From an uncultured Dehalococcoidia bacterium (lineage in GTDB: Bacteria; Chloroflexota; Dehalococcoidia; Lucifugimonadales; JAAXIE01), in assembly GCA_951813255.1 (NCBI GenBank), contig OX638353.1, positions 2,155,472-2,219,471 of the forward strand: DNA of 64,000 bases, in the 5' to 3' direction. Positions within the stretch are counted from its first letter, which is position 1; every line of letters starts with the position of its first letter. The notes beneath the pieces were generated by a model. That model was given only the letters and a program-made list of their open reading frames with translations. It was not told the DNA's origin and searched no databases. The position numbers and the translations under genes were made by a program. This document shows positions 17,824 through 63,520 of this stretch, piece by piece.

Positions 17824-19866
17824 CTACTGGTCCAGCTGCGCTACCAGGTCTGCGGGCGCAGTCACCGGCAACTGGCACGTGTAGTTCTGGCAGACGTATG
17901 CCGTGGGACGGCCGTCTATGAGGCCCCGGCCCTCCAGAAGAGGGATGCCGGGGCCTTCGTCCGTTCCGTCGCCTCCGGCAATCACCTTGTTGGGGCGGTA
18001 GCCTCCGTGTACGGTCTCCAGCAACTCCCGCGTGCCGGGGTCGCTCGGCGGCCCTATCACCACAACTTCTTTCACCGGACTCACATAGAAGTCGAGGGCT
18101 GACAGCCAGTTGCCCATCCCCATGGGATGCTCCGCCACGATATTCTGCACACCCCTAAGGGTGGTAGCGGCCTTCTCCTCATAACTGGAATCCCCGGTGA
18201 AGACCGACAAACGCTGCAGCAGTAACGCCGCCATCGAGCCTCCACAGGGTATAGCGTTGTCGAACAACTCCCGTGGACGCACCACCAACTGCTCCGCATC
18301 CTTGCCCGTCTCATAGAAGAACCCCAAGTCCTCATCCCAGAACAACTCAATCATCTCATCGGCCAAGGCCCGGGCTTCGTCAATCCACCGCGGGTCGAAT
18401 GTCAACTCGTACACACACAGCAGCCCCTCTCCAACAAAGGCATAGTCCTCCAAGTAGCCCAGCACCCGGGCCTGTCCGTCCTTGTAGCTGCGCAACATAC
18501 GCCCATCCGGGCGCATCTCCCTCAGCAGGAAGGAGGCGTTTTCAACAGCGACGCGCTTGTAGTCGTCACGGTCCAGCACGGCCGCCGCCTCTGCAAACGC
18601 CTGCAGCATGAGCCCGTTCCACCCGGTCAGAATCTTGTCGTCCCGCGCAGGGTGAATCCTCTTTTCCCGTGCCTCCAGCAGCTTCCCTCTCGCACCATGT
18701 AATGTTTCCCCAAGCTGCTCCGCATCCATACCCACTGCATCCGCGAACTCGTCCATATCATTCGGTAGGTGCAGGATGTTGCTACCCTCGAAGTTGCCCA
18801 ACTGACTGGCCCCGAAATACGCCCCCACCAGTTCCCCCTCTTCCGTTCCCAACACCTCCGCCAACTCCTCCGGGGTCCAGATGAAGAACTTGCCCTCCTC
18901 CCCCTCACTGTCCGCATCCTGACTGGAGTAAAACCCGCCAGTAGGATCCGTCATCTCCCGGACAACGTAATCGAGGATGTCAGTAGCGATATGCCGGTAC
19001 ATGGCATCCCCGGTCGCTTGGAAGGCATGGAGATACAAGCGTACCAGCAGCGCATTGTCATACAGCATCTTCTCGAAGTGGGGCACCAGCCAAGACCGGT
19101 CAGTCGAGTACCGGTGGAACCCGCCACCCACTTGATCATATATCCCACCACGGGCCATGGCCTGCAATGTCGCCTCTGCCATCTCCAGCGCCCGCGGGTT
19201 GTTGGACATGTGGTAGTACCTGAGCAGGAACTCGTAAGCCATGGGCTGCGGGAACTTCGGCGCGTTACCGAATCCTCCAAGCTCGTGGTCGAAAGCTGGG
19301 GCCAACGCTTGGAAGGCCCGGTGCATGGTGTCATTAATCAGTGGCTCCAGTGAACGGGGAAGCCGGGCCGACTGCCCCAAGTGCCCCATTAGCTGGTTGA
19401 TGGATTGTAGGACTTCACCACGACGCGTCCGGTAGGCATCAGAAATGGCCGACACCAGCCGCGGGAATCCAGGCATGTTGCCCCGGTCCGTGGGAGGGAA
19501 ATATGTCCCCCCATAGAACGGCCGTCCGTCCGGCGTCAAAAACACCGTCATCGGCCAGCCCCCGCTGCCAGTCAGCGTATGCACCGCCTCCATGTACACC
19601 GCATCAAGGTCGGGCCTCTCCTCCCGGTCCACCTTGATGTTCACAAAGTGCTCGTTCATCAACGCGGCGATCTCTTCATTCTCGAACGACTCCCGCTCCA
19701 TCACATGGCACCAGTGACAAGCCGAGTAGCCGATACTGAGGAGAATAGGCTTGTCCCCCTCTTGCGCCCGAGCCAACGCCTCCTCGCCCCACGGGTACCA
19801 GTCCACCGGGTTGTTCGCATGCTGGAGCAGGTAGGGGCTCGTCTCATCGATCAGCCGGTTGGGCAT
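17824..19866 (-). CDS. Thioredoxin-domain protein of the DUF255/YyaL family, with a C-terminal six-hairpin glycosidase-like domain
   Basis: N-terminus [21 protein letters not shown]...[13 protein letters not shown] is the DUF255 thioredoxin-like signature. 680 aa. Confidence 0.8.
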
Positions 19867-23896: not shown

Positions 23897-24183
23897 CCAA
23901 GGCCTCTGAGCGTAGAGGCGTGGGAAGTTCATGCACTGCCCGGCCGTAATGGCGCCGCCGGAGAGTAGGCGGGCCGCCATACTGGCCATGCAATTCCAAG
24001 GCATGCCTCTAGCTGAGGGGCGTGCAATGGCGTGGGACTGTCGAGCCGAGTTGCAGGGCCACGGTTCGTCGGCTAGGGCCGGGGCGGAAGTCCGTAGACC
24101 TCTCCCTCGCTGTAGCTCAGCTTAGTACTCAGGCCGGGGGTACCAAGAGACATGCGATGGGTTAGAGACTCCGCCCATCGCGG

Positions 24184-25989
24184 TTATGCAAGAGTTTCCT
24201 GCATGGGATACGCCCTTTTGCTCTCCTTCCAGTTCCTAGCCTGAAGTAACATTTCCGAGGCGTTGGTGCGGGTCGCACCGCTATCGGAGCCTAGCATCTG
24301 ACTGAGTTCCGTCACCCTGTCCTCGCCGTCCAGGACCTCCACCAATGTCACGGTCCTGTCATGTGAGGCGAGTTTTGTAACCTTAGCGTGATGGTCTGCA
24401 TAGCACGCTATTTGTGGGAGGTGAGTTACACATAGCACCTGGTGGCTATTGGACAGACCCCACAGTTTCTCACCCACGACACCCCCGACTCGGCCTCCTA
24501 TTCCCGCATCGACTTCGTCGAACACGAGTATCGGAATCTGGTCGGCACTCGATAGGATTGTCTTTATGGCGAGCATCAGTCTGGAGGCTTCTCCTCCCGA
24601 GGCGATCCTGGCTAGAGGTCGTGGGGGTTCACCCGGGTTCAGAGAAATCAGGAATTCCACAGAGTCTACACCTGTCCCGTTGAACGCGAGGTGCCTGACG
24701 GACTCCCCGCCCAAAGAAGGTTTTGCGCTGGAGCCCGACTCCACGGTCCCAACGGGCACACCGTCATCCGAGTCTGATTGACGGATATCCACAATCACTT
24801 GAGCGTGTCCCAAGGGCAGTCCTGCGACCTCTTCCTCTATGGCATCAGACAAGCGCGTGGCTGCCTGTTGCCGGGCTTCGGAGAGCTGGCCCGCAAGTCT
24901 GCCAACCTGCGTTAGAAGCTTGGTCTCTCGGGATTTCAATTCCTCAGTACGCTCTTCGCTGTTATGCAGGGTTTCCAACTCCTGCGAGACCGTCTCACCA
25001 AAGGCCTGGATTTCCTCGATAGTACCGCCATACTTCCTCTTGAGACTGTTGATCAAGCCCAAACGCTCCTCGACCTCCTCAAGACGGTTCGCGCTATGTT
25101 CGATGCCATCACGATAGCCTCGGAGAGCACGCGCCAACTCCTCTACCTGGTGGGTCAAGGCGTCTGCCGACTCACGGTTCTGATTCAACGAGGGGTCCAG
25201 TCGTTCCAGCTCGGAAAGGTCCTTGGACACCTGTCCGATAAGGTCCATGACCGATTCGTGCCGACCAGAGCCATCGGATAACGCCCTGTAGGCTTGGTCG
25301 GAGAGTGTGATGATTCGCTCTGCGTTCGCGGCTCGGTCCCTTTCCAGTGTCAGATCATGGTCTTCAGTTGGCTGCAGATTCGCGGTGCTGATCTCCTCTA
25401 CCTGGTATCTCAGATAGTCCATGCGTTGACCGAGCTCTTCTTCATCCTTCAAAAGCTTGTCCAACTCTTGGCGCGCCTCCGCTAGTTGACGGACTTTCTC
25501 CGCCACCTCGCCGCGAAGTTGCCATAGCCCTCCATACTTATCCAGGATATCCATATGCTCACGCACACGGAAAAGGGACAAGTGCTCATTTTGGCCATGG
25601 ATGTCTACCAAGTATTGGACCACTGAGCTTAGCATCCTGAGAGGTACGATTCGCCCATTCACACGGCAGGTGTTGCGTCCATCAAGATTGACCTCCCGCG
25701 CGAGAATTATCTCCCCTTCGGATACGTCAATCTCGTACTCAGCAAGAGCAACATTGATTCTCTGAAACACGTCGTCCCGAAGTAGGAAGATGCCCTCTAC
25801 CCTAGACTGCCGAGCACCGGAACGTACCATGCCCACATCGGCACGTCCTCCGAGTAGAAGGCTCAGCGCGTCCACGATGATCGACTTGCCCGCCCCCGTC
25901 TCCCCGGTTAGCACACTGAAGCCCGGCGCGAACTCGATTTCAAGCTGTTCTATGGTGGCCAGGTTGGTGACACTAAGAAGCCTTAGCAT
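24184..25989 (-). CDS. recN: DNA repair protein RecN
   Basis: N-terminal Walker A (LTGETGAGKSIIVDAL), long coiled coil, C-terminal Walker B / signature region. 601 aa. Confidence 0.85.
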   Translation of the reverse strand: MLRLLSVTNLATIEQLEIEFAPGFSVLTGETGAGKSIIVDALSLLLGGRADVGMVRSGARQSRVEGIFLLRDDVFQRINVALAEYEIDVSEGEIILAREVNLDGRNTCRVNGRIVPLRMLSSVVQYLVDIHGQNEHLSLFRVREHMDILDKYGGLWQLRGEVAEKVRQLAEARQELDKLLKDEEELGQRMDYLRYQVEEISTANLQPTEDHDLTLERDRAANAERIITLSDQAYRALSDGSGRHESVMDLIGQVSKDLSELERLDPSLNQNRESADALTHQVEELARALRGYRDGIEHSANRLEEVEERLGLINSLKRKYGGTIEEIQAFGETVSQELETLHNSEERTEELKSRETKLLTQVGRLAGQLSEARQQAATRLSDAIEEEVAGLPLGHAQVIVDIRQSDSDDGVPVGTVESGSSAKPSLGGESVRHLAFNGTGVDSVEFLISLNPGEPPRPLARIASGGEASRLMLAIKTILSSADQIPILVFDEVDAGIGGRVGGVVGEKLWGLSNSHQVLCVTHLPQIACYADHHAKVTKLASHDRTVTLVEVLDGEDRVTELSQMLGSDSGATRTNASEMLLQARNWKESKRAYPMQETLA

Positions 25990-26392
25990 GGCTATGTCCG
26001 GACCTCCACCCTTCCTAGCGGTGCCCTTGGCCTACCAAAATACTGGTCACATTTGCGCCCATGCAGATGCAACGTCGAGATGTAAGCGAGGGACGGAGCC
26101 CCGCTTGTTCAAGAATTATGAGGTCAATCCCAATAAATCGAAAGACCTTCGAGTTAACGGCCAAGTCGTCCGCCCGTGATACTGCGAGAGTCCTGCTACA
26201 TATCTTCCGTGGTCCATCCTGCCCGAGGAGAGCTCCAGTGCTACTCGAAGTCTGGGAAGACAACTCGGCGGACGAAGCCCACAACGTCCGGAACACGAAG
26301 CATCCTGAAGCCTCTTGCCATCACCATTCTGGCGCGCATGTCATCTCAGGGAGTGGTGCTCATTGAACGGACTACCGAATGAGAGGGGGATG

Positions 26393-26467
26393 TGGAGCCG
26401 GCGAGGGGATTCGAACCCTTGACCTGCGGTTTACGAAACCGCTGCTCTGCCACTGAGCTACGCCGGC
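26393..26467 (-). tRNA. tRNA-Thr (anticodon CGU)
   Basis: The reverse complement is GCCGGCGTAGCTCAGTGGCAGAGCAGCGGTTTCGTAAACCGCAGGTCAAGGGTTCGAATCCCCTCGCCGGCTCCA. It has a 7-bp acceptor stem, anticodon loop TTCGTAA, a TTCGAAT T-loop and encoded CCA. One A-C mismatch sits in the T stem. Confidence 0.85.
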
Positions 26468-26472
26468 AGTCC

Positions 26473-26507
26473 TATAATTATAGAGAGGCCAGCCTTGGGT
26501 TAGCAAA
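26473..26507 (-). promoter_or_regulatory. Putative sigma70-like promoter for tRNA-Thr. On the minus strand: -35 TTGCTA, ~18-nt spacer, -10 TATAAT about 9 nt before the mature 5' end.
   Basis: Reverse complement of 26470-26510 reads ...gTTTGCTAacccaaggctggcctctcTATAATtataggact|GCCGGCG. Confidence 0.4.
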
Positions 26508-26618
26508 CGCATAGCCCGCCCCGCTGGAATTCGCGTCGGGCTACCAACAACGTGCAGCTTGTCCTAAACTACCGTCAAACCACGGTGACCAATTCAACCC
26601 GGCGACGGAGGTGCCCGA

Positions 26619-27479
26619 TTGGCGCTACAGCAGGTGACCAGCAATGTGTTCACGGATATAACGTGCAGGGGGTGTAATTTCGGGTTTCTGACGACCTCGG
26701 ATGGCATCGTTATGTTCGATAGCCCCCACAAGCCCAGCGATGCCATGGCACTCAAGGCGGAGTTGGCGCGCCGGGGAGAGTTGCGCTACATCATCAATAC
26801 CGAGCCCCATGGGGACCACTGGACGGGCAACTCCTTCTTCGATGTGCCAGTGATCGCCCATGAGGGAGTGCGACGGCGCATCCTGGAGACTGACCTTGAA
26901 CAGCATGTGCAGCGGACAGCCTCCTTTGGCCCCGACGAGCCCCAGTACATGGAAGGCTACCAGTTCAACGCTCCTGCCATCACCTTCGAGAACGGCATGA
27001 CCCTGAGGGTCGGCGACCACACCATCCAGATCATCCACATGCCCGGGCACACCGCCTACCAAGCGGCCATCTGCATCAAGGAAGAGGGCGTGGTGTGGAC
27101 CAGCGACAACGTTTTCAACAAGGTGCAGAGCTTCCTCCAGGAATGCAGTCCTGACCAGTGGCTAACTGCGGTGGAGTCGCTCCGTCGCTTGGACGAGGAG
27201 ATATTCGTTCCGGGTCACGGCGAAATTTGCGGCAAGGAATACCTGGACGAGCAGGGCTCTTATATCCAGGAATGGAAGGACTACGTGTGGAATGCTGTGG
27301 AGCGGGGCATGAGCAAGGAGGATGCCATCTACAGCCTGACCAACCTGACGGAGCGGTATCCCATGGAAGCAGCCCACCAAGATGCAGCGGCTGTCATGCG
27401 GATGAACGTGGCTAACCTGCACGACTACCTCACGGGAAACTGGGTGCCATCGAACCCCCAAGCCCCTCCGGCCCGGTAG
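26619..27479 (+). CDS. MBL-fold metallo-hydrolase
   Basis: EPHGDHW (HxHxDH) zinc-binding motif, 286 aa. Confidence 0.75.
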   Translation: MALQQVTSNVFTDITCRGCNFGFLTTSDGIVMFDSPHKPSDAMALKAELARRGELRYIINTEPHGDHWTGNSFFDVPVIAHEGVRRRILETDLEQHVQRTASFGPDEPQYMEGYQFNAPAITFENGMTLRVGDHTIQIIHMPGHTAYQAAICIKEEGVVWTSDNVFNKVQSFLQECSPDQWLTAVESLRRLDEEIFVPGHGEICGKEYLDEQGSYIQEWKDYVWNAVERGMSKEDAIYSLTNLTERYPMEAAHQDAAAVMRMNVANLHDYLTGNWVPSNPQAPPAR

Positions 27480-27555
27480 GGGCTACGCTCCCTGTGCCAG
27501 TAGACGGGAGATGGATGCGAGTTTAGCTTTCCCATCCATCTCCCGTCTCTTCATC

Positions 27556-28656
27556 CTACAGGTTGTACAACGCTTTCGGATTGTGGCAGAGAATGCGCTC
27601 CCGGGTGGCCTCGTCGATGCCGTCCATGCCCCTGAAGATGGAGATGGCATCGATCTCGCTGGACGGGTCGGTGTGGCCGTAGTCGGTGCCGATGACGATG
27701 GAGTTGGGGCCAGCGTATTTCAGCACATACGGGATGTCGTCGTCGGTCTGGCAGGTGACGTATATCTGCCGCTCCCCGAACATGTCCTCGGGCTGAGCCA
27801 TACCCCGGGCTTCGTAGCGACGGGCCACCTCGTGGTGTATCCATGGCACCCACTGGGCCGAGGCCTCGATGATCCCCCACCGCAGCTTGGGGAAGAGCTT
27901 GGGCGCCTCGCCCATCAGCAGGGCGTAGGTCGCAACAATCGTAGGCACCCGGAAGAGGGCGAAGGCCATCGTGTTGAAGCCCTCAGGGAACCCGCGCAGC
28001 AGTTGGACATTGGTTGGATTGGCATTGGCGATGTGCACGGCCACGGCCATGTTGAGGTTGGTGGCCTCCTCGTACACTGGGTAGAAGTAGGGGTCGGTCA
28101 GCGAGCGGTCGCCTTCGAGGGGACGCATGCAAACGGCCACTGAGCCGTTCTCTTTGGCGAAGCGCATCTGGTTCACGGCCTCGTCGAGGGACAGGGTGGG
28201 TATCACGCAGGACCAGTTCAGACGCCCGTTCGACTGCCGGTAGACATCGGCCAGCCACTTGTTCCAAGACCGGCAGAGAGCGGCCTCGCAATCGGGGTCC
28301 TGCGTTACCTGCTCAATCCACATCGTGTTGTGCAGCACTTGCACGTCGATGCCCAGTTGGTCCATGTGGTGGAGGCGCAGCGATACGTCGTCGAGTTCGC
28401 GAGCGGCCTTGGGGGTGGACATGTCCCGGTTGGCCTTGCGCGATAGCTCCTCCAGTTGCTCCTCGCTCAGGTCGGCGAAGCGAAAGCCAGCAGTTGCTCC
28501 GTGGATGGCCCACATCTGGCGCTCCGCGTCATAGGGGTTGGGCAGCAGCACGGGGCGGAACTTCTCCTCCGCGGGTTCCAGATAGTCCCAGGTGCGCTCG
28601 GTCTCGATGACATGAGCATCAGCGTCGATAACCTGTAGCTTGGTCTGGGTCGCCAT
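27556..28656 (-). CDS. Amidohydrolase-2 family protein (ACMSD-like metal-dependent hydrolase/decarboxylase)
   Basis: N-terminal IDADAHVIE metal-binding motif, 366 aa TIM-barrel size. Confidence 0.65.
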   Translation of the reverse strand: MATQTKLQVIDADAHVIETERTWDYLEPAEEKFRPVLLPNPYDAERQMWAIHGATAGFRFADLSEEQLEELSRKANRDMSTPKAARELDDVSLRLHHMDQLGIDVQVLHNTMWIEQVTQDPDCEAALCRSWNKWLADVYRQSNGRLNWSCVIPTLSLDEAVNQMRFAKENGSVAVCMRPLEGDRSLTDPYFYPVYEEATNLNMAVAVHIANANPTNVQLLRGFPEGFNTMAFALFRVPTIVATYALLMGEAPKLFPKLRWGIIEASAQWVPWIHHEVARRYEARGMAQPEDMFGERQIYVTCQTDDDIPYVLKYAGPNSIVIGTDYGHTDPSSEIDAISIFRGMDGIDEATRERILCHNPKALYNL

Positions 28657-28865
28657 TAAGCACCTCCTACCGGTTCTTGAGTAGAAGACCCTGTCTTAAG
28701 GGGCATTCTAGCAGGGGGGCAGGTTGGTGCAAAGCAACGGCCTCCAAGGATCGATCCGGGCCTTGGTCAAGCCCTTTCGCCAGCCGCTATAACCAGCCGC
28801 TATAATCAGTAACGCCATCCCAGTTGTCGTAACCGAGCACGTCCCCAAGCAACTTGTACTAGCTT

Positions 28866-29930
28866 ATGCACGAAGAAACGGCACACCAAAACCTGCCCCA
28901 GCCCCGCATATCCAGACAGCGAGCAGGAGGGCTCCGTGCCCTGCTGCTCGCGCTCAGCATCCTGACCCTCTTCGCCCTCTCCTTGACATGCGGCACATCC
29001 CCCGACGTAACCCCCAGCCCAACCCCCACCCTACTCCCTCTGCCTACTTCCGCAGCCACTTCCGAGCCACCCCCGCTCACGCCCACGCCAACCGTACCGG
29101 AGCCACCACCAGCCCCATCCTTACCCGCAACAATACAACCAGTAGCCACACCCGCGCCGGAGCCACCACCTGCTACCCCCACACCCACGACGGAACCACC
29201 TCCAGCTACCCACGCGCCCACGCCGGAACCACCACCAACCACGCCCGAACCTACACCAGAGACGCCACCAGCCACGCCCGAACCTACACCAGAGACGCCA
29301 CCAGCCACCCCCGAACCTACACCAGAGCCGCCACTAGCCACGCCCGAACCCACACCGGAGCCGCCACCAACTACGCCCGAACCCACACCGGAGCCGCCAC
29401 CCGCTACCCCCGAACCTACGCCAGAGCCGCCACCCGCTACCCCCGAACCCACACCCACCCCCGAAGTCGGCACCAGCATCGGCAACCTAGCCCCAGACTT
29501 CCAGCTACCCTCCGCCCAAGGCTCCAACCACTTCCTGGCATCCTATCGCGGCGAGAAAAACCTGGTCCTGGTGTTCTACCGCGCCTTCTGGTGAACATAC
29601 TGCCGCAGGCAGCTGGATCAGCTGTCAAATAACTACGACGACATCACAGCCCTCGACGCCGAAATACTCGCCATCAGCGTCGACGACCTCAGCGGCGCCA
29701 CCGACATCGCCGACAGGGTAGGCATCCCCTTCCCCGTCCTCTACGACCCCGAAGGCACCGTCCCCAAGGCCTACATGGTCTACGGCCTCCTCGAACCCAA
29801 CCGCGCCGCCCCCTCCACCTTCATCCTCGACAAAAACGGCATCATCACCTGGAAATACATAGGCGCCACCATCTCCGACCGCACAGGCCCCTACAGCATC
29901 ACCCGCGAACTCCAAGCCATCCAAACCTAG
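28866..29930 (+). CDS. Putative selenoprotein: membrane-anchored Prx-like/AhpC-TSA-family thiol-disulfide oxidoreductase with an in-frame TGA (29592..29594) at the first position of the CxxC redox motif (FYRAFW-U-TYC).
   Basis: The 28866..29594 ORF has a signal/anchor (RISRQRAGGLRALLLALSILTLFALSLTCG) and ~190 aa of Pro/Thr/Glu repeats (TPEPTPEPPPA, about 8 copies). It ends at TGA exactly where the Prx_like/Bcp consensus (VLVFYRGxWCPxC) has the redox Cys. The same frame then runs without a start codon for 111 further codons encoding the rest of the thioredoxin fold (TYCRRQLDQL...ILAISVDD...GIPFPVLYDPEG...AYMVYG...STFILDKNGII) to TAG at 29928..29930. Hairpin-capable sequence lies just 3' of the TGA (GCCGCAGGCAGCUGGAUCAGCUGUC). 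Confidence 0.6.
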
Positions 29931-30204
29931 CATCTCCAGCACCCCCACTGCCCGCCTAGCCGCCGCCATAGGAGCCTTTGTCCCAAACTAACCACTTGCT
30001 ACAGCCGTCCATGGATTCCGCCTTCCACAGTTCGACGCAAGGTACCGTTACATTCCTTACGGTGTGCTAGGGTAAACTATCTTTGCATGATGTCATTTGA
30101 CAGCTATTGACATATACTACTGTACTGTACTAACCTGCCCCTGTAGCAATCGCGCAATCACCGGGAGGGGCCCTTTGGCAGACTCCGGCGACCCCGAAGC
30201 TCTG

Positions 30205-30645
30205 ATGTCGTTGCACGATGTGGCCCAATACCTGGCCATGACCGACCGCACCATCTACGACTGGGCCCAGACCGGCCGCATCCCCGCCTTCAAGCTGGGC
30301 GCCACCTGGCGCTTCCGCCGCTCCGAAATCGACGCTTGGCTCCAGAGCCAGCGCTCCGGCCCCGAAGTGTCCCCAGCCAAGCGTCAACCCTCGCAACCGC
30401 TGATACCCCGCACCGACCCCGAACCCACCCGGCGGCAACGGGTCGCTGCCTGCAAGGCAGAGATAGAGACGGCGATATCGGACTCCACGCGAACTACCTT
30501 CCTGATCAGCCAGTTCGAGGATGAGTTCGGCACGAACGTGGTGAGCGAGGCCCTTGAGGAACTGCGCAAGGAAAAGCGAATCACCGTCACCCACATCAAA
30601 GGCCGCGACGGCCTCAGAAATCGAGTCATACGAAGAAGGAGTTGA
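30205..30645 (+). CDS. Helix-turn-helix DNA-binding protein (excisionase/MerR-like HTH_17) with a ~90-aa C-terminal extension
   Basis: MSLHDVAQYLAMTDRTIYDWAQTGRIPAFKLGATWRFRRSEIDAWL matches the excisionase-family HTH. The ORF track extends to 30097, but the domain begins at the 30205 ATG. Confidence 0.6.
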   Translation: MSLHDVAQYLAMTDRTIYDWAQTGRIPAFKLGATWRFRRSEIDAWLQSQRSGPEVSPAKRQPSQPLIPRTDPEPTRRQRVAACKAEIETAISDSTRTTFLISQFEDEFGTNVVSEALEELRKEKRITVTHIKGRDGLRNRVIRRRS

Positions 30646-30648
30646 ACC

Positions 30649-31191
30649 ATGGGCATACTGGGATTCGGCAGAGCCAACAAGCTGGAAGACCTCAAGATCG
30701 ACGACCTTCGCCGCGAACGGGTGGTGCAGGAGGTCGAGCAGGACAACTCTCTCAGGGCCATCCGTCGCGCCCAGCAGGAATACGACCGGCGCCTCCAGTT
30801 GGCCTCTGAGCCAGGTGTATCCGACGCCGAGAAGGACGTAGCTGCCTACCGCATGAAGATAGCCCGGAAGACCAAGGCCAAGTCCGAGACTGACCTGCAG
30901 CAGACCATCACCCGCATGACGGTCCTGGACTCTGCCATCGACGTCATCCACTTGAAGCGCGACCTCCAGAAGAACGGCGTCTGGAAGCGCATCAACGACC
31001 TCGACCCCGAAACCCTCGAAAGGCAACTCAAGGACATCGCCGTCAAGACCAAGGGCTCCAACAACAAGCTAAAGACCATCGTCGACATCCTCGAGAAGGA
31101 TGAGGCCGACGTAGCCTATGAACGAGGCCCGGAATACGACGAGGCCCGGGCAGAAATTGAGCGCATGGCGCAGGAGAAGAGCGGCTGGTAG
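30649..31191 (+). CDS. Coiled-coil protein (180 aa). Possibly PspA/IM30/ESCRT-III-like, but fold unverified.
   Basis: ATG 8 nt after GAAGGAG, 3 nt after the HTH-gene stop. The N-terminus MGILGFGR is reminiscent of the PspA MGIFSRF start. Highly charged heptad-like sequence throughout. Confidence 0.45.
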   Translation: MGILGFGRANKLEDLKIDDLRRERVVQEVEQDNSLRAIRRAQQEYDRRLQLASEPGVSDAEKDVAAYRMKIARKTKAKSETDLQQTITRMTVLDSAIDVIHLKRDLQKNGVWKRINDLDPETLERQLKDIAVKTKGSNNKLKTIVDILEKDEADVAYERGPEYDEARAEIERMAQEKSGW

Positions 31192-31295
31192 TGCCGCGGT
31201 GATGGGTAGCGCACCGACAGCGAGTAGGCCTTCGCTTTCCTGTCTAGCAACGGGTGATGGGCACTTTCGTGCTCTGTCGGCAATGGGAGGTCAAT

Positions 31296-32705
31296 GTGCC
31301 CAAACGCAGGCGCAAGGGTCTATCAGTCATGGAGACAATGGCGGCATTGCTACTCCTGTTGCTGGCTTGGTTCATTGAGCATCCGTGGATTTCGTGGTCG
31401 CTTATGGGCTTCGCATCTGTCCTCGTGCTCATAGGCGCTTGGCGAAAACTCCACACGGACAGGCGCATCACCTCGTCCTTAGGGACATCACCTGCTAACG
31501 ACTCAAACCGAGCGACGCATGCTCCTAGCCCGAACGAGGCGCAAGAACTGGGGGTTTGCGTAAAGGAGGGCGCTTTGACAGACCATGACTCCCTGCTGTG
31601 GCCTGTAACCCCAAGATGGGGACACGTGACTGCCGAACCAAGTCAAGTCGGAATAGTGATGCGCAACGGCAGCTTGCACTCCCGCTGGCATGGGGGTAGG
31701 AAAGCAGTTCCCGTAACGGGTGAGATAAGAACCTACCTTGTGTCTACCAGGCCATTCGACATCCGCTTCAGTGTTTCGGATGCGACACCAGGCCCACAGT
31801 CTGCGCAAGCCATGTTGGAGGGGACAACCAGTGACCACTCGCCGATACACGGATCCGTGGAGGTGAGGCTACAGGTTAATGAGGAAGTCGCCGATTGGCT
31901 GTTGAACATAGGAGGCCAGGTAACTACGACCGACGTAGCACGCCATATCAGACTGGATGTGGCTACGGCCGTAGCGGCGGTTGGGTCTGAACATGCCGCA
32001 TCTGAATTCAGAGGTTATAGCCAAGACATCTCCGAATCGATTAGTGAGGAACTCGAGAAAGCTCTCAAGAGGCACGGCCTGGGGGTAGTGCGACTCTATG
32101 CTAATCTATCGGCTGGAACGCCCACCCTCGACTCAGGTCCCACGAACACCAAAACGGTGTCCACGGATTCCCCACCCCAACCTACCGTGCCAAACACTGA
32201 ACGAGCTTGGATTGTGCGAGGCAAGGCTGGTGGAAAATACTGGGTTGTCGACCAGTTTGTGGACAAGGAGGTCGTCTCGATCGGTTGGCCGGCGATGGGA
32301 GACTTATCGAGGTTCAGCGCCAAGGGAGAACTGAGAAGCGCGCTTAAGAGATTCCACCCTGAGTCGGGAGATGGAACGGTCAATATCCTTTGGGGCTTCT
32401 GCCGGGAAATCTGCGTCGGGGATGTGATTGTAACTCCGGCTCCGAACCCTCTTTCGGCGAAGCCTAGAACGAAGCCGTCGCAGATCGTGATTTGGCGCTG
32501 TATTGGCCCTTACGAGTATAACCCAGGGGTCATAGAGTGCAGCAAATACCCGTTTGCAAGCATCCGGAAAGTAGAGAGGGTGGCTATCGTCAGCGTGTCG
32601 AGGCTCTCACAGAAGCTCCAAGACCGCCTGCAACTACCACCCACAGTGTCCCCAATCAAGCAGCAAGAGTATGTACAGGAACTGGAGTCGGCGATCAAGA
32701 GCTAG
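31296..32705 (+). CDS. SPFH/Band-7 (stomatin/flotillin-like) paralog 1. N-terminal hairpin membrane anchor, SPFH domain, and a C-terminal domain resembling the N-terminal domain of many Mrr-type restriction endonucleases (RAWIVRGKAGGKYWVVDQFVDKEVVSIGWPAMGDLS).
   Basis: GTG start 5 nt after GGGAGG. Basic N-terminus KRRRK then two TM helices. The SPFH core (LLWPVTPRWGHVTAEPSQVGIVMRNG...RTYLVSTRPFDIRF...GSVEVRLQV...GLGVVRLYANLS) aligns with the two downstream paralogs and with HflK/stomatin SPFH motifs. Confidence 0.7.
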   Translation: MPKRRRKGLSVMETMAALLLLLLAWFIEHPWISWSLMGFASVLVLIGAWRKLHTDRRITSSLGTSPANDSNRATHAPSPNEAQELGVCVKEGALTDHDSLLWPVTPRWGHVTAEPSQVGIVMRNGSLHSRWHGGRKAVPVTGEIRTYLVSTRPFDIRFSVSDATPGPQSAQAMLEGTTSDHSPIHGSVEVRLQVNEEVADWLLNIGGQVTTTDVARHIRLDVATAVAAVGSEHAASEFRGYSQDISESISEELEKALKRHGLGVVRLYANLSAGTPTLDSGPTNTKTVSTDSPPQPTVPNTERAWIVRGKAGGKYWVVDQFVDKEVVSIGWPAMGDLSRFSAKGELRSALKRFHPESGDGTVNILWGFCREICVGDVIVTPAPNPLSAKPRTKPSQIVIWRCIGPYEYNPGVIECSKYPFASIRKVERVAIVSVSRLSQKLQDRLQLPPTVSPIKQQEYVQELESAIKS

Positions 32706-32738
32706 AGCGATATCAGGCGAGACCAAGAGAGGGCTCCA

Positions 32739-35252
32739 TTGAGCGAAGAACACCGCGACGACCTAGTATTAGCACCCGGCGAACCCCGCCGGGGCAACCT
32801 CATCATCTACCCCTACCATGTGGGCATCGTCATATGCAACGGAAAAGTGGAAGGCGTCTTCCCCGAAGGTACCAGACGCCTTCCTAGGGGCGATGTGCGT
32901 ACCTATGTGGCCTCCACCGCTCCCTTCAACCTCACCTTCTGGCTCCAAGACCCCGGCGACCCCTCCGAGCCGGGTGAGGGGATGGCATTGGACCAACCCG
33001 TCCTCACTGCCGACGGCCAACTCGTCACCGGCCGCATCGATCTCACACTCTCAGTAGTCCCCGACAACGCAGAACACCTGCTGCAACTCCTTAGCCCCGG
33101 CGGCGCCATCACACGACGCCATGTCGCCGACTCCATCAAGAGCGAACTGCTCGCCAAGGTCCTCGCCCTCGACCTTCACACCCACACCGCAGGCACCCTG
33201 CGCGGAAACCGCGACCTCTTCCAAGGTATCTATGCCTCCCTCGAAATCGAACTCGCATCCACCATCTCCCGCTACGGCCTCAAGCTCGACAACTTCTACG
33301 TCAACTGGGGCCTCATTCCCGAAGAGCGCGAGCGCATCAAGGAAGAACGCCACCAGAGCGTCATCCGCGACATCGAACGCGAGTCCGAGCTTGAGCGTCT
33401 GGGCGGTCGAAGGCCCGGCGGTCCGGGCGGCGGTGGCTCCTCAGTCGGCAGGTCCGGCGGAGCCCCAGGCGGCTGGTTCAACCTTCCACGAGGCATCGGA
33501 GTCCTAGCCCTCATCCTTTTCGCGGCCTTGATTGCAACCCTGTTGGCAGTCGACCCCGCCGGCTGGTTCGACGACTCGCCCGATGCAACGCCAGTCGCTG
33601 CTGCCACTCCCCAGCCCGCTCCAACGTCTGACCGCCCGCCGGCCCCCGCGCCCGCTCCCACCACTGAAGACATTCAGGCAGCAGTCGCCGCCGCCATAGC
33701 CCAACTGCCCCAACCCTCAGCCGGGCCATCCATGGACGAGGTGGCCGCCCTCGTCTCCGCATCCGTTGCGGAGGCGTCCGGCAATAACGCCTCCCCTGAG
33801 GAGATACAAGGCCTCGTGGCCGATACCATCGCCAAAGCCATGGCCAGCCAGCCCCAACCCGAATCCGGCCCCACCCGCGACGAAATCGCAGCCATCATCG
33901 CCGAGGCCATCCCCACTTCCGCCTCCAGCGAGGGCCCCTCTCCGGCAGAGATTCAAGCCATGATTCAGCAGGCCATCGCCTCCCTCCCCCAACCAACCCA
34001 AGCTGAAGCCGGTCCAACCTCCGAGGAAATCGACGCCCAAATTCAGGCAGCCCTCTCCTCCCTCCAACCCGGCATGACCCCGGAACAAGTGCAGGCCGCC
34101 GTGCAACAGGCCGTTACGGCCTCCATCGCATCCATGCCCACGCCGACTCCAGCCCCAACTCCCGCTGCCGCACCGCCTCCCGCAAGCTCGGCCACTCCCG
34201 CGCCCACAGCTACCCCTACTGCCGCGCCCACCGTCCAAGCAACGCCTACCCCCACTCCAGCAACCGAACCACGCGAAGCAGAACTCGTGTGGAGCTACGA
34301 CACGGAATCCGAGGTGTGGTCCTCTCCCGCCGTGTCGGAAGAGTGGGACGTCTTATATGTGGGCGCAAGCCATGGTTACTTGTACGCTTTGGATACGGTG
34401 ACGGGCCAGCTGCTGTGGCGGTACGGACCAGGAGCAACAACTTCCTGGCGATCATGGCCAGTTGTGGTGGGGAAGACAGTGTACACAGGAGGAAATGAGT
34501 ATTACGGCACCGATTTACTAGCCGTAGAAGCAGGGGAACAGCGGTGGGATGTTCGGTCGTGCTACATTTGTGTTGCACCCATTTTCTCCGCTGGGAGCAT
34601 CTACGTGGGCAGCTCGGGGTCGTTATATGCTCTTGACGCGGCCACTGGTGCACAACATTGGTACTACCGTACAGCGGTGAGAGAAGGTTCCATTCGGACA
34701 CGGCCGTCCGTAGTTGACAAGATGGTCTACTTCGGGGCTGATGACAAGCGCATATATGCTCTGACCACGAAAAAGGGCGAATTGATTTGGAGCTACGCCA
34801 CCAATGCCGCAGTCCGCTCTTCTCCTACCGTCGCTGACGGCATCGTGTATGCTGGCTCCAACGACGACCACCTGTACGCGGTGAACGCGGAGGCGGGCGA
34901 GTTCATCTGGCGGTACCGAACGGGCGGAGACGTCATTTCCTCTCCCGCAGTCGCAAACGGCATCGTCTACGTAGGTTCCAATGACGGCAGCCTGTACGCC
35001 CTCGACGCCACAACGGGCACGTTAGCCTGGAGCTACGAGACAGGCGGTGCGGTGGTGTCCTCACCTGCAGTGTCCGACGGGGTCGTGTATGTGGGGTCAT
35101 ACGACGGGTTCCTGTACGCCCTTGACGCCGCCACCGGATCACTGGTCTGGAGTTATGAGACCGAAGACAAAGTAGCGTCCTCGCCAGCCGTATCGGGCGA
35201 TAACGTGTACGTGGGGTCGGTGGATGGGCATGTGTACGCCTTCCGGAAGTGA
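32739..35252 (+). CDS. SPFH/Band-7 paralog 2 (837 aa). Domain order: SPFH domain, Gly-rich linker, single TM helix, seven ~23-aa amphipathic repeats (PS.EEIQA.I..AIA..PQP), a Pro/Thr/Ala linker, and a C-terminal PQQ-like/BamB-like beta-propeller.
   Basis: TTG start after AGAGAGG. SPFH motifs VLTADGQLVTGRIDLTLSVVPDNAEHLL and GLKLDNFYVNWG. TM helix GIGVLALILFAALIATLLAV. About 8 repeats of (V/I)Y(V/A)GSxDGxLYALDAxTGxxxW typical of the PQQ beta-propeller fold. Confidence 0.75.
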   Translation: MSEEHRDDLVLAPGEPRRGNLIIYPYHVGIVICNGKVEGVFPEGTRRLPRGDVRTYVASTAPFNLTFWLQDPGDPSEPGEGMALDQPVLTADGQLVTGRIDLTLSVVPDNAEHLLQLLSPGGAITRRHVADSIKSELLAKVLALDLHTHTAGTLRGNRDLFQGIYASLEIELASTISRYGLKLDNFYVNWGLIPEERERIKEERHQSVIRDIERESELERLGGRRPGGPGGGGSSVGRSGGAPGGWFNLPRGIGVLALILFAALIATLLAVDPAGWFDDSPDATPVAAATPQPAPTSDRPPAPAPAPTTEDIQAAVAAAIAQLPQPSAGPSMDEVAALVSASVAEASGNNASPEEIQGLVADTIAKAMASQPQPESGPTRDEIAAIIAEAIPTSASSEGPSPAEIQAMIQQAIASLPQPTQAEAGPTSEEIDAQIQAALSSLQPGMTPEQVQAAVQQAVTASIASMPTPTPAPTPAAAPPPASSATPAPTATPTAAPTVQATPTPTPATEPREAELVWSYDTESEVWSSPAVSEEWDVLYVGASHGYLYALDTVTGQLLWRYGPGATTSWRSWPVVVGKTVYTGGNEYYGTDLLAVEAGEQRWDVRSCYICVAPIFSAGSIYVGSSGSLYALDAATGAQHWYYRTAVREGSIRTRPSVVDKMVYFGADDKRIYALTTKKGELIWSYATNAAVRSSPTVADGIVYAGSNDDHLYAVNAEAGEFIWRYRTGGDVISSPAVANGIVYVGSNDGSLYALDATTGTLAWSYETGGAVVSSPAVSDGVVYVGSYDGFLYALDAATGSLVWSYETEDKVASSPAVSGDNVYVGSVDGHVYAFRK

Positions 35253-35308
35253 TCGGCAGTGGGCCGCGCCTATATTCCTTGCATGGAGGTTCTGACTTGA
35301 GGAATCCT

Positions 35309-36265
35309 ATGCCTGCCGACAGTGTATTGTGGCCCGCAAAACCCAAGCGTGGCTGGCTGACGGCCGACGTTCATCAAGTGGCTGTCGTCATGTGGGATGG
35401 TACCGTGGACGATGTCTTTTGGGCTGACCGGAAGAAGATGCGCGATGGCCGGGGTCCCTTCTATCTTGCCTCCACTGCCCCGTTTGAAGTCGCGTACAGC
35501 TTGAAGGCTTCTTCCCCTGGGGAAGAGTCGAGCGGGAGTCCGACATTGGACCAGTCAGTCTATACATCCGACGCGCAACCTGTGATGGGCCAGCTTACAG
35601 TCGGCTTGTCCTTGGCCCCCGAAAGGGTCGAACGTCTGCTCCCGTTGCGTGGCCGAGGACAATGCGTTACCAGTTGGGATATCGCCTTGGCCATCAAGAA
35701 TGACTGTGCAACAGCAGTAGCAGATGTAGTCGCTCAACATACCGCCAGTGACCTTCAAGGCAAGAGGCAAGCTATCCGGGAATCAATCCGAAACCAATTG
35801 GCTGCACCAGCAGCTCGCTTTGGCTTGCAGTGTGGGAGTGTTTACCCAAATCTTTCGGTCATTACATGCTCAACGCCACCGGTCATTACACGCCCAAAGC
35901 CACCAGTCATCACGCGCCCAACGCCACCAGTCATCACGCGCCCAACGCCACCAGTCATCACACGCCCAACGCCACCGCAGAGCGCCAAATGCCAAACCTT
36001 CTCACGTGCGCATACCCCTCAGGCCGAAGAGCGCTTTCAAGCGTGGATGCGAGCGAATCCCACAGGCTACGTCTTCAATCACTTCAGAGGCAGCAATCCC
36101 GGCTATAATCTGCTCCATCAACTGCCCTGTCCCAGCTTTCAGCGTCAGGCTACCACAGCAGTCCAAAAGTTCTGCTGCACCGACCGCGCCTGCATCGAAC
36201 GCACCATCCGCGAACTCCGAGGCGAATCCTGGCAATTGTGCGGCAACGGCTGCTGTCCGGGGTAG
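35309..36265 (+). CDS. SPFH/Band-7 paralog 3. SPFH domain, five tandem PPVITRPT octapeptide repeats, and a C-terminal 7-Cys domain.
   Basis: ATG 5 nt after GAGGA. N-terminus LWPAKPKRGWLTADVHQVAVVMWDG aligns with paralogs 1 and 2. SPFH end motif GLQCGSVYPNLS. The C-terminus is CQTFS...CPSF...FCCTDRAC...LCGNGCCPG. Confidence 0.7.
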   Translation: MPADSVLWPAKPKRGWLTADVHQVAVVMWDGTVDDVFWADRKKMRDGRGPFYLASTAPFEVAYSLKASSPGEESSGSPTLDQSVYTSDAQPVMGQLTVGLSLAPERVERLLPLRGRGQCVTSWDIALAIKNDCATAVADVVAQHTASDLQGKRQAIRESIRNQLAAPAARFGLQCGSVYPNLSVITCSTPPVITRPKPPVITRPTPPVITRPTPPVITRPTPPQSAKCQTFSRAHTPQAEERFQAWMRANPTGYVFNHFRGSNPGYNLLHQLPCPSFQRQATTAVQKFCCTDRACIERTIRELRGESWQLCGNGCCPG

Positions 36266-39618: not shown

Positions 39619-40599
39619 CTACGCGATGCCCAGTTCGGCCTTGAGTTCGCTCACTGCCTGCTGCTGATTACGCAGCTTCCCGATGGCCTCATCCTCTTTC
39701 CGGGTCTTTAGACCACAGTCGGGAGCGATGAACAGCCTGTGCGGAGGCAGGTACTCCAAGGCGCGGCGGATGCCAGCCTTGATGTCTTCCACGGGCTCCA
39801 CCAAGTGGGTGTGGGAGTCACTGACCCCCATGGAGAGGTACTTGGACTCGGGCAGCGGGTGCTCGCGGAACATGTCCAGCAGGTCGTAGTTGCTGTTGGC
39901 GGTCTCCAGGTCGAACATGTCCACTGGCATATTTACCAGTTCATCGTACACCGCAGAGAAGTCGCCGTAGCAGACGTGGGTGATGGTGAAGGCGTCCAAG
40001 CCCTCGGTGACAACACCCAAGGCCCGCGATGCCAGTTCCATCTCCTCAGGACGCGTGGAGACGGCAGGCTCGTCGACCTGTATGTACTTTGCCCCAGCGC
40101 GCTGCAGATCAACCGCCTCTTCATGGACCACCCGGGCCATTTCCATGACGAGGTCGGCGAAGGTGGGGTAATACTCGTTGAAGGACCAGTCGGCCATGGT
40201 GTAGGGGCCCGTGAGCATCGCCTTGACGGGGCGCTCGGTCAGTCCTTGGGAGTACTTCCACCAGTCGAGGGATATGGGTGACGTGCGTCCCACAGGACCC
40301 ACGGCGATGGGCTTGCGGTAGTAGCGGTTGCCATATGATCGCACCAGACCGCTGATGCGAAATCCCTCCATGTGCTCCGAGAAGTAGGTGACCATGTCCC
40401 CGCGGTACATCTCCCCATCCACCAGCACATCCATGTCGAGCTCTTCCTGGACGCGTATCCAGTGCTCGGTAGCCTGCTCCTCCAGCTTGTGAAGCTCCGC
40501 AGCTTCCATGCGGCCTTGGGCAACCTGGTTTCGGGCGCGGAGTATGTAATCGGGCTTGGGATAGCTGCCTACGGCGGTGGTGATAAGTCCTTGGGTCAT
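39619..40599 (-). CDS. Cobalamin-independent methionine synthase II-like protein (short MetE C-terminal-domain homolog, Meth_synt_2)
   Basis: VGSYPKP, TGPYT, IQVDEPA, HVCYG and PDCGLK motifs. 326 aa. Confidence 0.75.
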   Translation of the reverse strand: MTQGLITTAVGSYPKPDYILRARNQVAQGRMEAAELHKLEEQATEHWIRVQEELDMDVLVDGEMYRGDMVTYFSEHMEGFRISGLVRSYGNRYYRKPIAVGPVGRTSPISLDWWKYSQGLTERPVKAMLTGPYTMADWSFNEYYPTFADLVMEMARVVHEEAVDLQRAGAKYIQVDEPAVSTRPEEMELASRALGVVTEGLDAFTITHVCYGDFSAVYDELVNMPVDMFDLETANSNYDLLDMFREHPLPESKYLSMGVSDSHTHLVEPVEDIKAGIRRALEYLPPHRLFIAPDCGLKTRKEDEAIGKLRNQQQAVSELKAELGIA

Positions 40600-41570
40600 G
40601 ACAACACCTCCTGGGCCTGCTTGGCGCCTTCGACCAAACGGACCAGCTTTTCTCTAGCTGTAACGCGGGGCAGGAACTCCAGTCCTGCGCTGGGGCTCAG
40701 GTAGAGCCGGTCCAGGGATACGTGCTGGGAGATGCGGCGGACGTTGTCCACCAGTTGGTCGACGGTCTCCATCTTGGTATTGCGAGCATCCATGACACCT
40801 GCCGCCAACTCCCGATCATCGGGCAGATGCTGCAGGACATCGTAGTTCTTGCTGCCCATCACGAAATCCAGCCCGAAGACCTTGAAGGGCAAGCCGAAGA
40901 ACTGCTTCTCGATGCCCGCGATGTCCTTGAAGAAGGTGCAGATGCCCGTCTTGGTGGTGAGGCCAGCGGTGAGCGCCTCTGAGGCACGCTCAAGCAGCCC
41001 TATGTCCTGCTTGGCGGCTAGAATGCACGGCTCGTTGAACTGAATAAAGGGGGCGCCTGCCTCCTGAAGGGCTAGGGCTTCTTTGTTCAGGGCATGGGCC
41101 AAGTCCATCACCAGCGAAGGAAGATCATCGTAGCAACCCAGTTGGGAGAGGGCAGCCAAGCTGTAGGGGCCGGTGACGACGGCCTTGACGGGGCGGGAGC
41201 TTTGGGCGCTGGCATATTCGTACCAGTGGACCGAGATGGGCTGCGCCCACTCGATTTTCTCGCGAGGCATTGGCTGTCTATAATAGGTATTGGTGTCGAA
41301 ATAACGGATCAATCCGGTGATTTCGAAACCATTGAGGCCACGTGCGAAGGGGGTCTGACCGTCCTCCCAAGCTATTTGACCATCGGTAGGGAGGTCGATA
41401 CCGGCGTCGATCTGCTCCCGGATCACGTCGGAGGTGACATCGCGAATGACCCGCTCCAAGTCCTCCCGGCTGCTGGCGCCGGTATCCATCTGCGAGATAG
41501 TGCGTCGGATATTGGGCCCATCGGAAGTGGGCGAGAGTTTTGGATGGTTTCCAATTACGGTAGTTAGCAA
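40596..41570 (-). CDS. Second, paralogous short MetE-like (Meth_synt_2) protein
   Basis: VIGNHPK, TGPYS, IQFNEPC and SPSAGL motifs. 324 aa. 4-nt overlap with the downstream paralog. Confidence 0.7.
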   Translation of the reverse strand: MLTTVIGNHPKLSPTSDGPNIRRTISQMDTGASSREDLERVIRDVTSDVIREQIDAGIDLPTDGQIAWEDGQTPFARGLNGFEITGLIRYFDTNTYYRQPMPREKIEWAQPISVHWYEYASAQSSRPVKAVVTGPYSLAALSQLGCYDDLPSLVMDLAHALNKEALALQEAGAPFIQFNEPCILAAKQDIGLLERASEALTAGLTTKTGICTFFKDIAGIEKQFFGLPFKVFGLDFVMGSKNYDVLQHLPDDRELAAGVMDARNTKMETVDQLVDNVRRISQHVSLDRLYLSPSAGLEFLPRVTAREKLVRLVEGAKQAQEVLS

Positions 41571-63114: not shown

Positions 63115-63520
63115 AGCAATACCACCCGGAAAAGCTGTTAGGCCGCTCTGCAAAAAGGGGAGGAAGTAGGCGGAGGGTCAATATCTATTATAGCGAAAGA
63201 CGGCGGAAGTATCCAGTCTGGTATCGGAACCATAGCTTGAGGTTCGCTAGCTTACCGGACTGACAGGTTTAATTGACCTCCAACTCGCGCCTGAGATGTA
63301 TCCTATCGGCCCCCCGATGGGCTTCAAAATTGACAGGCCACAAGGAAGGTATATAGAATGTCGAGGTATTGATTCTGAGTATCAGTGACCAGTGCGACAA
63401 TCAGGGGCTGAATATGGCCGATGCGAGCATCGGCCATTCCTTAAGGGCGTCGCGGACTGCGGCCCAACTCCAAAGAAGCTGCCCTCTTGCAGCTTTATCC
63501 CCACCCCAGCCGAGGTGTGA

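Follow-up and report, generated by a model that had tools for sequence, protein, structure and literature searches.

A predicted selenocysteine-containing, stalk-tethered thioredoxin-fold oxidoreductase encoded across an in-frame TGA in Dehalococcoidia

An open reading frame (ORF) that breaks off inside its own catalytic domain raises the question of whether translation ends there at all. We address this question for positions 28866-29930 of a 64-kb stretch of DNA from an uncultured Dehalococcoidia bacterium (contig OX638353.1; the whole stretch is called the window below), where the ATG at 28866 starts a 242-codon ORF that terminates with ...KNLVLVFYRAFW-TGA at 29592-29594 (LVLVFYRAFW-TGA). 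In our favored reading, to which we assign a probability of about 0.88, the region constitutes a single gene for a selenocysteine (Sec)-containing, cell-surface-tethered thioredoxin-fold oxidoreductase. The in-frame TGA is almost certainly a real Sec codon because it is conserved among homologs, pairs with Cys in some of them, precedes sequence under selection and a conserved hairpin, aligns with an active-site position, and occurs in a class that uses Sec and in a genome region where UGA is not reassigned.

A single domain across a conserved TGA

Past the TGA, the frame stays open for 111 codons as TYCRRQLDQLSNNYDD... (TYCRRQLDQL...) until the TAG at 29928-29930, as the initial annotation had described. 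The earliest in-frame ATG beyond the TGA lies at 29775, well within the AhpC/TSA domain. With Cys put for the stop, the translation matches Pfam AhpC-TSA (PF00578) over residues 205-329 (E 8e-29, 100.5 bits, cut-off 26) and Redoxin (PF08534; E 6e-20). Since the PF00578 match covers profile positions 1-123 of 124 and runs through the TGA, a single thioredoxin-fold domain straddles this codon, in agreement with the complete fold initially proposed from the translated frame.

Upstream of the domain, the N-terminus MHEETAHQNLPQPRISRQRAGGLR-ALLLALSILTLFALSLT-C42-G comprises a basic n-region, a hydrophobic helix, and a Cys, followed by a Pro/Thr-rich stalk (residues 43-204). The stalk core is a 33-nt tandem repeat (11 residues, TPEPTPEPPPA-like) present in 9.3 copies at 29146-29452, and stalk length varies between the orthologs L001 and L002. 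Both the signal or membrane anchor and the PT-rich stalk had been recognized in the initial annotation; both are seen, but the stalk spans ~160 residues rather than the ~190 given there. In nearly all Dehalococcoidia homologs, the hydrophobic helix is likewise followed by a lipobox-like [A/V][A/G]-C-G/D/S. The product is probably a lipoprotein with its lipid at Cys42, although the residue preceding this Cys departs from the lipobox consensus [LVI][ASTVI][GAS]-C expected behind the n- and h-regions.

A scan of species-representative genomes yielded 80 homologous loci, nearly all in metagenome-assembled genomes (MAGs) of Dehalococcoidia/Chloroflexota, many of them chromosome-level. Among 109 tblastn alignments of the whole domain that cover the TGA position, drawn from ~60 related genomes (mostly Dehalococcoidia MAGs), the aligned codon is TGA in 104, Cys in 4, and Thr in 1. 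A motif regular expression that permits Cys or a stop finds TGA in 83/83 matches within the 80-locus set. In the contig DNA of the syntenic orthologs L001-L003, the TGA occupies the identical codon and the frame is open, while the two-domain relative L004 carries a TGA at the motif codon twice. L001, L002, and L005 share 83-89% amino acid identity with the window protein, the TGA at the identical codon, and the organization of the coding sequence (CDS); L005 is the closest relative in the genome scan (89% identity). Rather than naturally ending at the TGA, an outcome that the initial annotation had considered, the orthologs thus keep both the codon and the open frame to the same stop. The Sec form also occurs at loci assigned to Acidimicrobiia, Holophagae, Pirellulales, and Verrucomicrobiales, and further at loci assigned to Gemmatimonadales, Rokuibacteriota, Vicinamibacterales, and Thermoleophilia. 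At the protein level, the domain retrieves mostly fragments of two classes: proteins of 88-111 residues that start just past the TGA position, and proteins of 197-263 residues that join the C-terminal part of one domain via a Pro/Thr linker to the N-terminal part of the next, ending ...FYRAFW.

Several homologs encode Cys at the Sec codon (P0057 on contig L085, L071, L073, and others). P0057 reads NLVLVFYRAFW-C-TSC-RAQL with the codon TGC, and alignment to such Cys forms, a check suggested at the outset, accordingly places a Cys at the TGA codon (FYRAFWCTSC). Moreover, L085 and the Sec-containing L004 share the gene order CMD-NAPRTase-Prx, which marks P0057/L085 as the Cys-form positional ortholog of L004. 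A second pairing occurs in a distant subfamily, between Cys proteins with FYRGDW-C-PYCNAQL (P0072, P0075) and loci with FYRGDW-TGA-PYCNGQL (L062, L065, L072). As a separate observation, the P0057 gene (L085 3001-3648) has a lipobox LAG-C-G and is devoid of the downstream hairpin described below (3/7 pairs); it lies on a contig of 3x coverage and loses its frame past residue 215.

The ratio of nonsynonymous to synonymous substitution rates (dN/dS) over the 111 post-TGA codons is 0.28 against L001 and 0.30 against L004, and 0.25-0.27 over the 44 domain codons that precede the TGA. The sequence downstream of the TGA is under purifying selection. Among the 34 domain-supported genes of the window, 11 end with TGA, 19 with TAG, and 4 with TAA; as TGA terminates 11/34 of them, UGA is not generally reassigned. 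Across the window, 60 in-frame TGA codons bridge at least 60 open codons on each side, but a redox-motif context is found only at 29592. The others were rejected as selenoprotein candidates, as they represent neighboring same-frame genes or non-coding frames of GC-rich DNA.

The downstream hairpin and alternatives to recoding

The sequence just 3' of the UGA, initially noted as hairpin-capable, can form the hairpin GGCAGCUG-GAU-CAGCUGUC at 29608-29626, which is conserved with compensatory changes. Its 7-bp core stem starts 14 nt past the UGA and pairs 29609-29615 with 29619-29625 around the triloop GAU (29616-29618), extended by a G-C pair at 29608/29626. In an alignment of 71 distinct 63-nt segments from the UGA onward (A2), columns 18-24 pair with 28-34, and 81.9% of these cells are paired; shifting the 3' side by 1-3 columns lowers this share to 17.6-48.4%. 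For covariation, the score is 0.207, whereas shuffling gives 0.098 ± 0.011 (0/500 reach 0.207) and shifted partners no more than 0.078. Two synonymous sites meet in pair 21-31, base three of a Gln codon and base one of the second Leu codon; this pair occurs as GC 49, AU 14, and GU 5 times, with 3 unpaired. The outer pair 18-34, in which a synonymous site faces base one of the next codon, occurs as GC 36, UA 13, AU 5, GU 3, and CG 1. The first triloop base, G25, is at least 90% conserved.

The stem coincides with the codons of a conserved peptide, Q-L-x-(E/Q)-L, and each peptide was re-encoded with random synonymous codons at window codon usage as a null. At least 6/7 pairs form in 89% of the Sec forms versus 19% of the synonymous re-encodings, and 7/7 pairs in 54% versus 3%. 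The Cys-form controls comprise only three genes, with 3, 3, and, in one case, 6 of 7 pairs; the hairpin is not the minimum-energy fold in any of them. Thus, as far as can be judged from the aligned sequences, the hairpin is conserved beyond what the peptide requires and fits the description of a bacterial selenocysteine insertion sequence (SECIS). The UGA at 29592 would be decoded as Sec by SelB-Sec-tRNA(Sec) during translation, directed by this short intra-CDS element with its 7-bp stem and G-led triloop. Within the class, the cultured Dehalogenimonas alkenigignens possesses selC, Sec-synthesis genes, and a Sec-specific elongation factor (PMC4918011). Further, the database BSepDB, which takes only species with a Sec pathway, has two Dehalococcoidia MAGs (49 and 46 selenoprotein genes) among its top ten (PMC13326102, Table 2), and one of the two belongs to the same UUID-named MAG series as loci found here (PMC13326102).

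A lone sequence with a stop inside a domain would most simply be read as damage, that is, as a nonsense mutation or a sequencing or assembly error in a pseudogene or at a codon that is really TGC or TGT, and frame breaks do occur in single domains of relatives (the first domain of L039, the third of L022). This explanation is effectively refuted by the recurrence of the TGA in 104/109 domains from ~60 independently assembled genomes, including chromosome-level long-read assemblies, by a frame that is intact on both sides with a downstream dN/dS of ~0.3, and by the conservation of the hairpin at synonymous sites. UGA could instead be read as Trp, Gly, or Cys through a reassigned code or near-cognate suppression, without Sec; such reassignment occurs in some bacterial lineages, and Sec machinery was found neither in the window nor in 1.5 Mb of related loci. 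We consider it very improbable, as TGA terminates 11 of the 34 well-supported window genes at their domain-expected ends, is restricted here to one codon within a redox motif that is Cys in homologs, and is followed by a dedicated conserved hairpin, and as Sec use is documented for Dehalococcoidia (PMC4918011, PMC13326102). Hardly more credible is a regular termination at the UGA, with a 242-aa PT-rich lipoprotein as the functional product and the remainder untranslated or rare. Gene callers annotate exactly this 242-aa product, and since bacterial Sec insertion competes with release factor 2, some truncated product is to be expected, especially under selenium limitation. However, such a protein would stop in the middle of the first beta-alpha unit and have no active site, the 111 downstream codons are conserved as protein, and the two or three same-frame domains of fused relatives make sense only if each UGA is decoded.

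Several results nevertheless count against a Sec-containing, surface-tethered product. By ARAGORN, motif regular expressions, and tblastn, no tRNA-Sec, selA, selB, or selD was detected in the 64-kb window, and no Sec machinery in the 1.5 Mb of related loci; the tblastn probes were approximate E. coli SelA/SelB/SelD sequences and matched only ThiL-like AIRS paralogs and EF-Tu. Pfam/NCBIfam annotation of ~45 window ORFs likewise gave no Sec machinery, and the sole tRNA of the window is tRNA-Thr(CGU) at 26393-26467 (minus strand). The window copy of the hairpin, taken alone, forms 7/7 pairs and is marginal against the synonymous null (P ~0.055), while the surrounding 75 nt fold with ordinary stability (z = 0.40). 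RNAalifold gave an empty consensus for the 71-sequence alignment, for which explicit pair counting was used instead, and no SECIS-type Rfam model matched at the gathering or E<=10 threshold. The hairpin is also devoid of the bulged U of the E. coli fdhF SECIS. At the N-terminus, the lipobox ...FALSLT-C42-G has a non-canonical Thr at position -1, whereas L005 with Ala (SLA-C), L001 with Gly (SLG-C), and most homologs (AA-C-G or VA-C-G) conform to the consensus. Finally, no conserved neighbor gene among the compared homolog loci hints at a redox partner or substrate. The AIRS/AIRS_C gene beside L004 was separately evaluated as a SelD candidate and rejected, since NCBIfam assigns it to ThiL (282.6 bits versus 73 for SelD).

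Active site, tether, and likely function

In the alignment to the solved CxxC protein 3hdc (WASWCPYC), U243 falls on the first Cys. Aligned to AhpE of M. tuberculosis, it takes the Thr position of TxxC, and Cys246 lies opposite the peroxidatic Cys. The placement of the TGA at the first Cys of a CxxC motif, as initially claimed for Prx-like/Bcp proteins, consequently holds for 3hdc, the Cys form P0057, and "Prx-like" members, but not for true Prx/Bcp proteins, which have Thr at this position (TxxC). The peroxiredoxin signature PxxxTxxC...R retains only its Cys here: Arg (FYR) stands in for Pro, Sec for Thr, and Pro316 for Arg. In alignment A2, T10 and G11 of the Cys246 codon are invariant and C12 is nearly so. 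Pro316 (P73 in alignment A1) is invariant in the family within A-[AT]-P-S-T-F and aligns with the Pro of 3hdc "LPDTFIVD" and with the Arg of AhpE "NRGTF"; this Pro column corresponds to the cis-Pro loop of thioredoxin-fold disulfide oxidoreductases.

The closest solved structures by sequence are AhpE, Geobacter 3hdc, and ResA. The best NCBIfam models are SelL_rel_redox ("SelL-related redox protein"; 60.4 bits, cut-off 120) and ResA (56.1, cut-off 170), ahead of DsbE (32.4, cut-off 123) and TlpA (21.5, cut-off 230), and no model attains its cut-off. By score, the protein is therefore not a ResA/DsbE/TlpA member, although it is alike in motif position, cis-Pro, and extracytoplasmic tether. A ResA/TlpA-like reductase is favored over a true peroxiredoxin because the UxxC motif is combined with the invariant cis-Pro-loop Pro, while the Pro, Thr, and Arg of peroxiredoxins are all missing. 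We infer an extracytoplasmic selenol/thiol-disulfide reductase. The 354-aa product would be exported and, through the probable lipid at Cys42, anchored on the outer face of the cytoplasmic membrane, with the UxxC domain kept away from the membrane by the ~160-aa Pro/Thr-rich stalk. Sec243, at the attacking N-terminal Cys position of CxxC, would form a selenenylsulfide with Cys246 and reduce extracytoplasmic disulfides, or possibly sulfenic acids or peroxides. A membrane electron donor, perhaps of the CcdA/DsbD type, may recycle the Sec243/Cys246 pair.

The main rival on function keeps this gene model but sees in the domain a peroxiredoxin- or GPx-like peroxidase that would use selenium to remove peroxides at the cell surface. 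Such a role would suit the high reactivity of Sec toward peroxides, the AhpC/TSA assignment by Pfam, the position of Cys246 opposite the peroxidatic Cys, and weak NCBIfam matches to PrxU and PrxQ; most directly at odds with a reductase, the best sequence matches among solved structures are the peroxiredoxins AhpE and Bcp. We nonetheless regard a peroxidase as the less likely of the two, given that all three signature residues are replaced, Arg by an invariant Pro, that the thioredoxin-like UxxC and the cis-Pro-loop Pro occur as in ResA, TlpA, and 3hdc, that the top NCBIfam matches, all below cut-off, are the SelL-related redox protein and ResA, and that the literature classes the family as thiol:disulfide oxidoreductases (PMC13188914).

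Relatives, neighboring genes, and known systems

Relatives of the gene carry up to three motif TGAs in one frame. Single frames with two motif TGAs are found in L004 (9626-11035), L012 (8822-10330), and L018 (8972-10324), whereas the ~615-650-codon frames of L014 (9113-10957) and L015 (9044-10990) contain exactly three and no other stop before TAA. Pro/Thr linkers separate the tandem UxxC domains, every one of which comes with an in-frame TGA and a hairpin behind it; in public annotation, these relatives appear as three or four pieces. At many other loci, two single-Sec lipoprotein genes lie next to each other instead. Frameshifts or extra stops in single tandem domains of L039 (~9326-9700) and L022 (~10670-11025) may reflect decaying copies or assembly errors. 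At two loci, L024 (minus strand, ~20074) and L030 (minus strand, ~20196), a different UxxC candidate selenoprotein with ...LFYRGHW-TGA-PYCGRQL... is encoded on the other strand, ~10 kb away from the main family member.

We tentatively suggest that the Dehalococcoidia branch may represent a distinct, undescribed class of lipid-anchored, stalk-mounted surface selenoproteins, often duplicated as adjacent genes or 2-3-domain fusions, with a minimal SECIS for each UGA. If so, it would provide a bacterial multi-Sec surface redox array with several successive recoding events per polypeptide. The two- and three-Sec relatives may also be useful as model systems for how bacteria insert Sec processively. 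Gene calling breaks the gene and ~100 relatives from public Dehalococcoidia MAGs into two or three ORFs, so that annotation misses the real protein, and recognizing the gene would restore a complete surface redox protein. It would also place a Sec-based chemistry, thiol-disulfide or peroxide, on a long flexible stalk beyond the cytoplasmic membrane, and add to the evidence of heavy selenium investment by marine and host-associated Dehalococcoidia. The putative SECIS is very compact, a 7-bp stem with a G-led triloop built from the codons of a conserved pentapeptide, and offers natural covariation.

The features of the locus are compiled in Table 1. The promoter-like site has 10/12 consensus matches, and the region contains three such sites versus 0.3 expected from shuffles.

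Table 1. Features of the selenoprotein locus in window coordinates
Feature	Position	Strand	Remarks
Promoter-like TCGCCA-18 nt-TATAAT	28777..28806	+	~60 nt upstream of ATG; consensus match alone
Complete predicted selenoprotein CDS, 354 codons from ATG to TAG	28866..29930	+	One in-frame UGA (Sec243)
Signal peptide / probable lipoprotein signal	28866..28991	+	Basic n-region, hydrophobic helix, S-L-T-Cys42, Gly
Pro/Thr-rich low-complexity stalk, residues 43-204	28992..29477	+	
Thioredoxin-fold AhpC/TSA (Prx-like) domain, residues 205-329	29478..29852	+	PF00578, PF08534
UGA, predicted selenocysteine codon Sec243	29592..29594	+	Heads U-T-Y-C redox motif; TGA conserved in homologs
TGC, Cys246, Sec partner in UxxC	29601..29603	+	Aligns with AhpE peroxidatic Cys, second Cys of CxxC
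SECIS-like hairpin	29608..29626	+	Pairing conserved in homologs
CCC, Pro316	29811..29813	+	Family-invariant (A-A-P-S-T-F); column of Prx catalytic Arg
TAG, true stop codon	29928..29930	+	Orthologs terminate at same place

The surroundings of the gene differ between loci. L001 and L002 have PPDK upstream and pP_pnuc_1 (PF18165) downstream, and L004 has NAPRTase/CMD upstream and BioY downstream. In orthologous contigs, PPDK lies directly upstream of the selenoprotein gene (L001 9186-9301), whereas ~5 kb intervene in the window (23897-28865), containing recN (24184-25989, minus strand), the tRNA-Thr(CGU) gene, a metallo-beta-lactamase-fold gene (26619-27479), and an amidohydrolase gene (27556-28656, minus strand). 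From the compared gene orders, we read this interval as a synteny break beside a tRNA gene. Directly downstream, the region 30097-36265, in place of which L001 and L002 have PF18165, opens with an ORF with a match to the excisionase/MADS MAD1-type helix-turn-helix family NF047737 (73.7 bits, cut-off 80). Beyond it lie ORFs without a family match (30649-31191, 31254-32705, and 35249-36265) and a gene for an 837-aa PQQ-like beta-propeller protein (32739-35252); the region looks like a variable or defense island.

Three more distant window loci deserve mention. A family-5 solute-binding protein with collagen triple-helix repeats near its N-terminus (61114-63153, minus strand) is a further predicted case, within this genome, of a surface protein mounted on a low-complexity stalk. 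Two adjacent genes of ~325 aa each with a Meth_synt_2 domain (cobalamin-independent methionine synthase catalytic domain), overlapping by 4 nt (39619-41570, minus strand), form a split or duplicated short MetE-like pair. A 680-aa DUF255/Thioredox_DsbH protein (17824-19866, minus strand), conserved upstream in L001 and L002, has a weak NCBIfam match, far below cut-off, to the thioredoxin-like part of the selenoprotein TsoB (E 9e-8).

Among known systems, TlpA, ResA, and CcmG (DsbE) (1st9, 1jfu, 2b1k; Geobacter 3hdc) are likewise thioredoxin folds tethered to the membrane outside the cytoplasm. The redox motif of 3hdc occupies the same position (WCPYC versus W-U-TYC), and the type shares the cis-Pro-loop Pro ahead of the T-F-[IV]-[IL]-D strand. 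In contrast, sequence similarity is modest (E 1e-8 to 1e-14), with the NCBIfam ResA/DsbE scores far below cut-off; the window protein has Sec for the nucleophilic Cys, its gene adjoins no cytochrome-c-maturation or CcdA gene, and the protein would be held by a long, lipid-anchored PT stalk instead of a domain-proximal transmembrane helix. The 1-Cys peroxiredoxin AhpE (1xxu, 4xih) and Bcp/PrxQ give the best structure matches (E 4e-14) with the same overall fold and with Cys246 on the peroxidatic Cys, but differ in the PxxxTxxC...R signature, which is absent from the window protein with Sec at the Thr and Pro at the Arg position. A preprint reportedly pairs selenoproteins with a "lipoprotein signal peptide", which would hint at an earlier bacterial example of a lipid-anchored selenoprotein outside the cytoplasm; in place of a thioredoxin-fold redox domain, these reportedly have a CUxxT motif, an unrelated fold, and a proposed organometallic or metal-handling role.

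The closest known system is the Prx-like thiol:disulfide oxidoreductase selenoprotein family (PF00578, UxxC), to which the gene would belong by its PF00578 domain, its UGA heading UxxC (not the TxxU of Sec-Prx), its Cys homologs, and a stem-loop just downstream of the UGA with a small G-containing apical loop. The signature of bacterial Sec-containing Prx-like oxidoreductases named in the initial annotation is indeed that of this published family (PMC1088965, PMC13188914). Known since 2004-2005, the family is well established, as is the recoding mechanism; WP_010940744.1 is its representative (PMC1088965, PMC2398784, PMC13188914), and as "Prx-like 1" (pfam00578, UxxC) it ranks among the most abundant in the GOS data, with 225 sequences (PMC2398784). 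The lipoprotein-plus-stalk and tandem-fusion architectures are not described in this family literature (PMC1088965, PMC2398784, PMC13188914), in which a review's "1~2 Sec" entry concerns a UxxU motif. Thus, while the AhpC/TSA fold, the small G-containing hairpin, and the Cys homologs are shared, the window domain differs in being mounted on a lipoprotein-type signal and a ~160-aa Pro/Thr repeat stalk, and its relatives in fusing 2-3 domains, each with its own UGA and hairpin. Current understanding is not overturned by this comparison; rather, it points to an unusually tethered family member from a lineage whose wealth of selenoproteins was known before.

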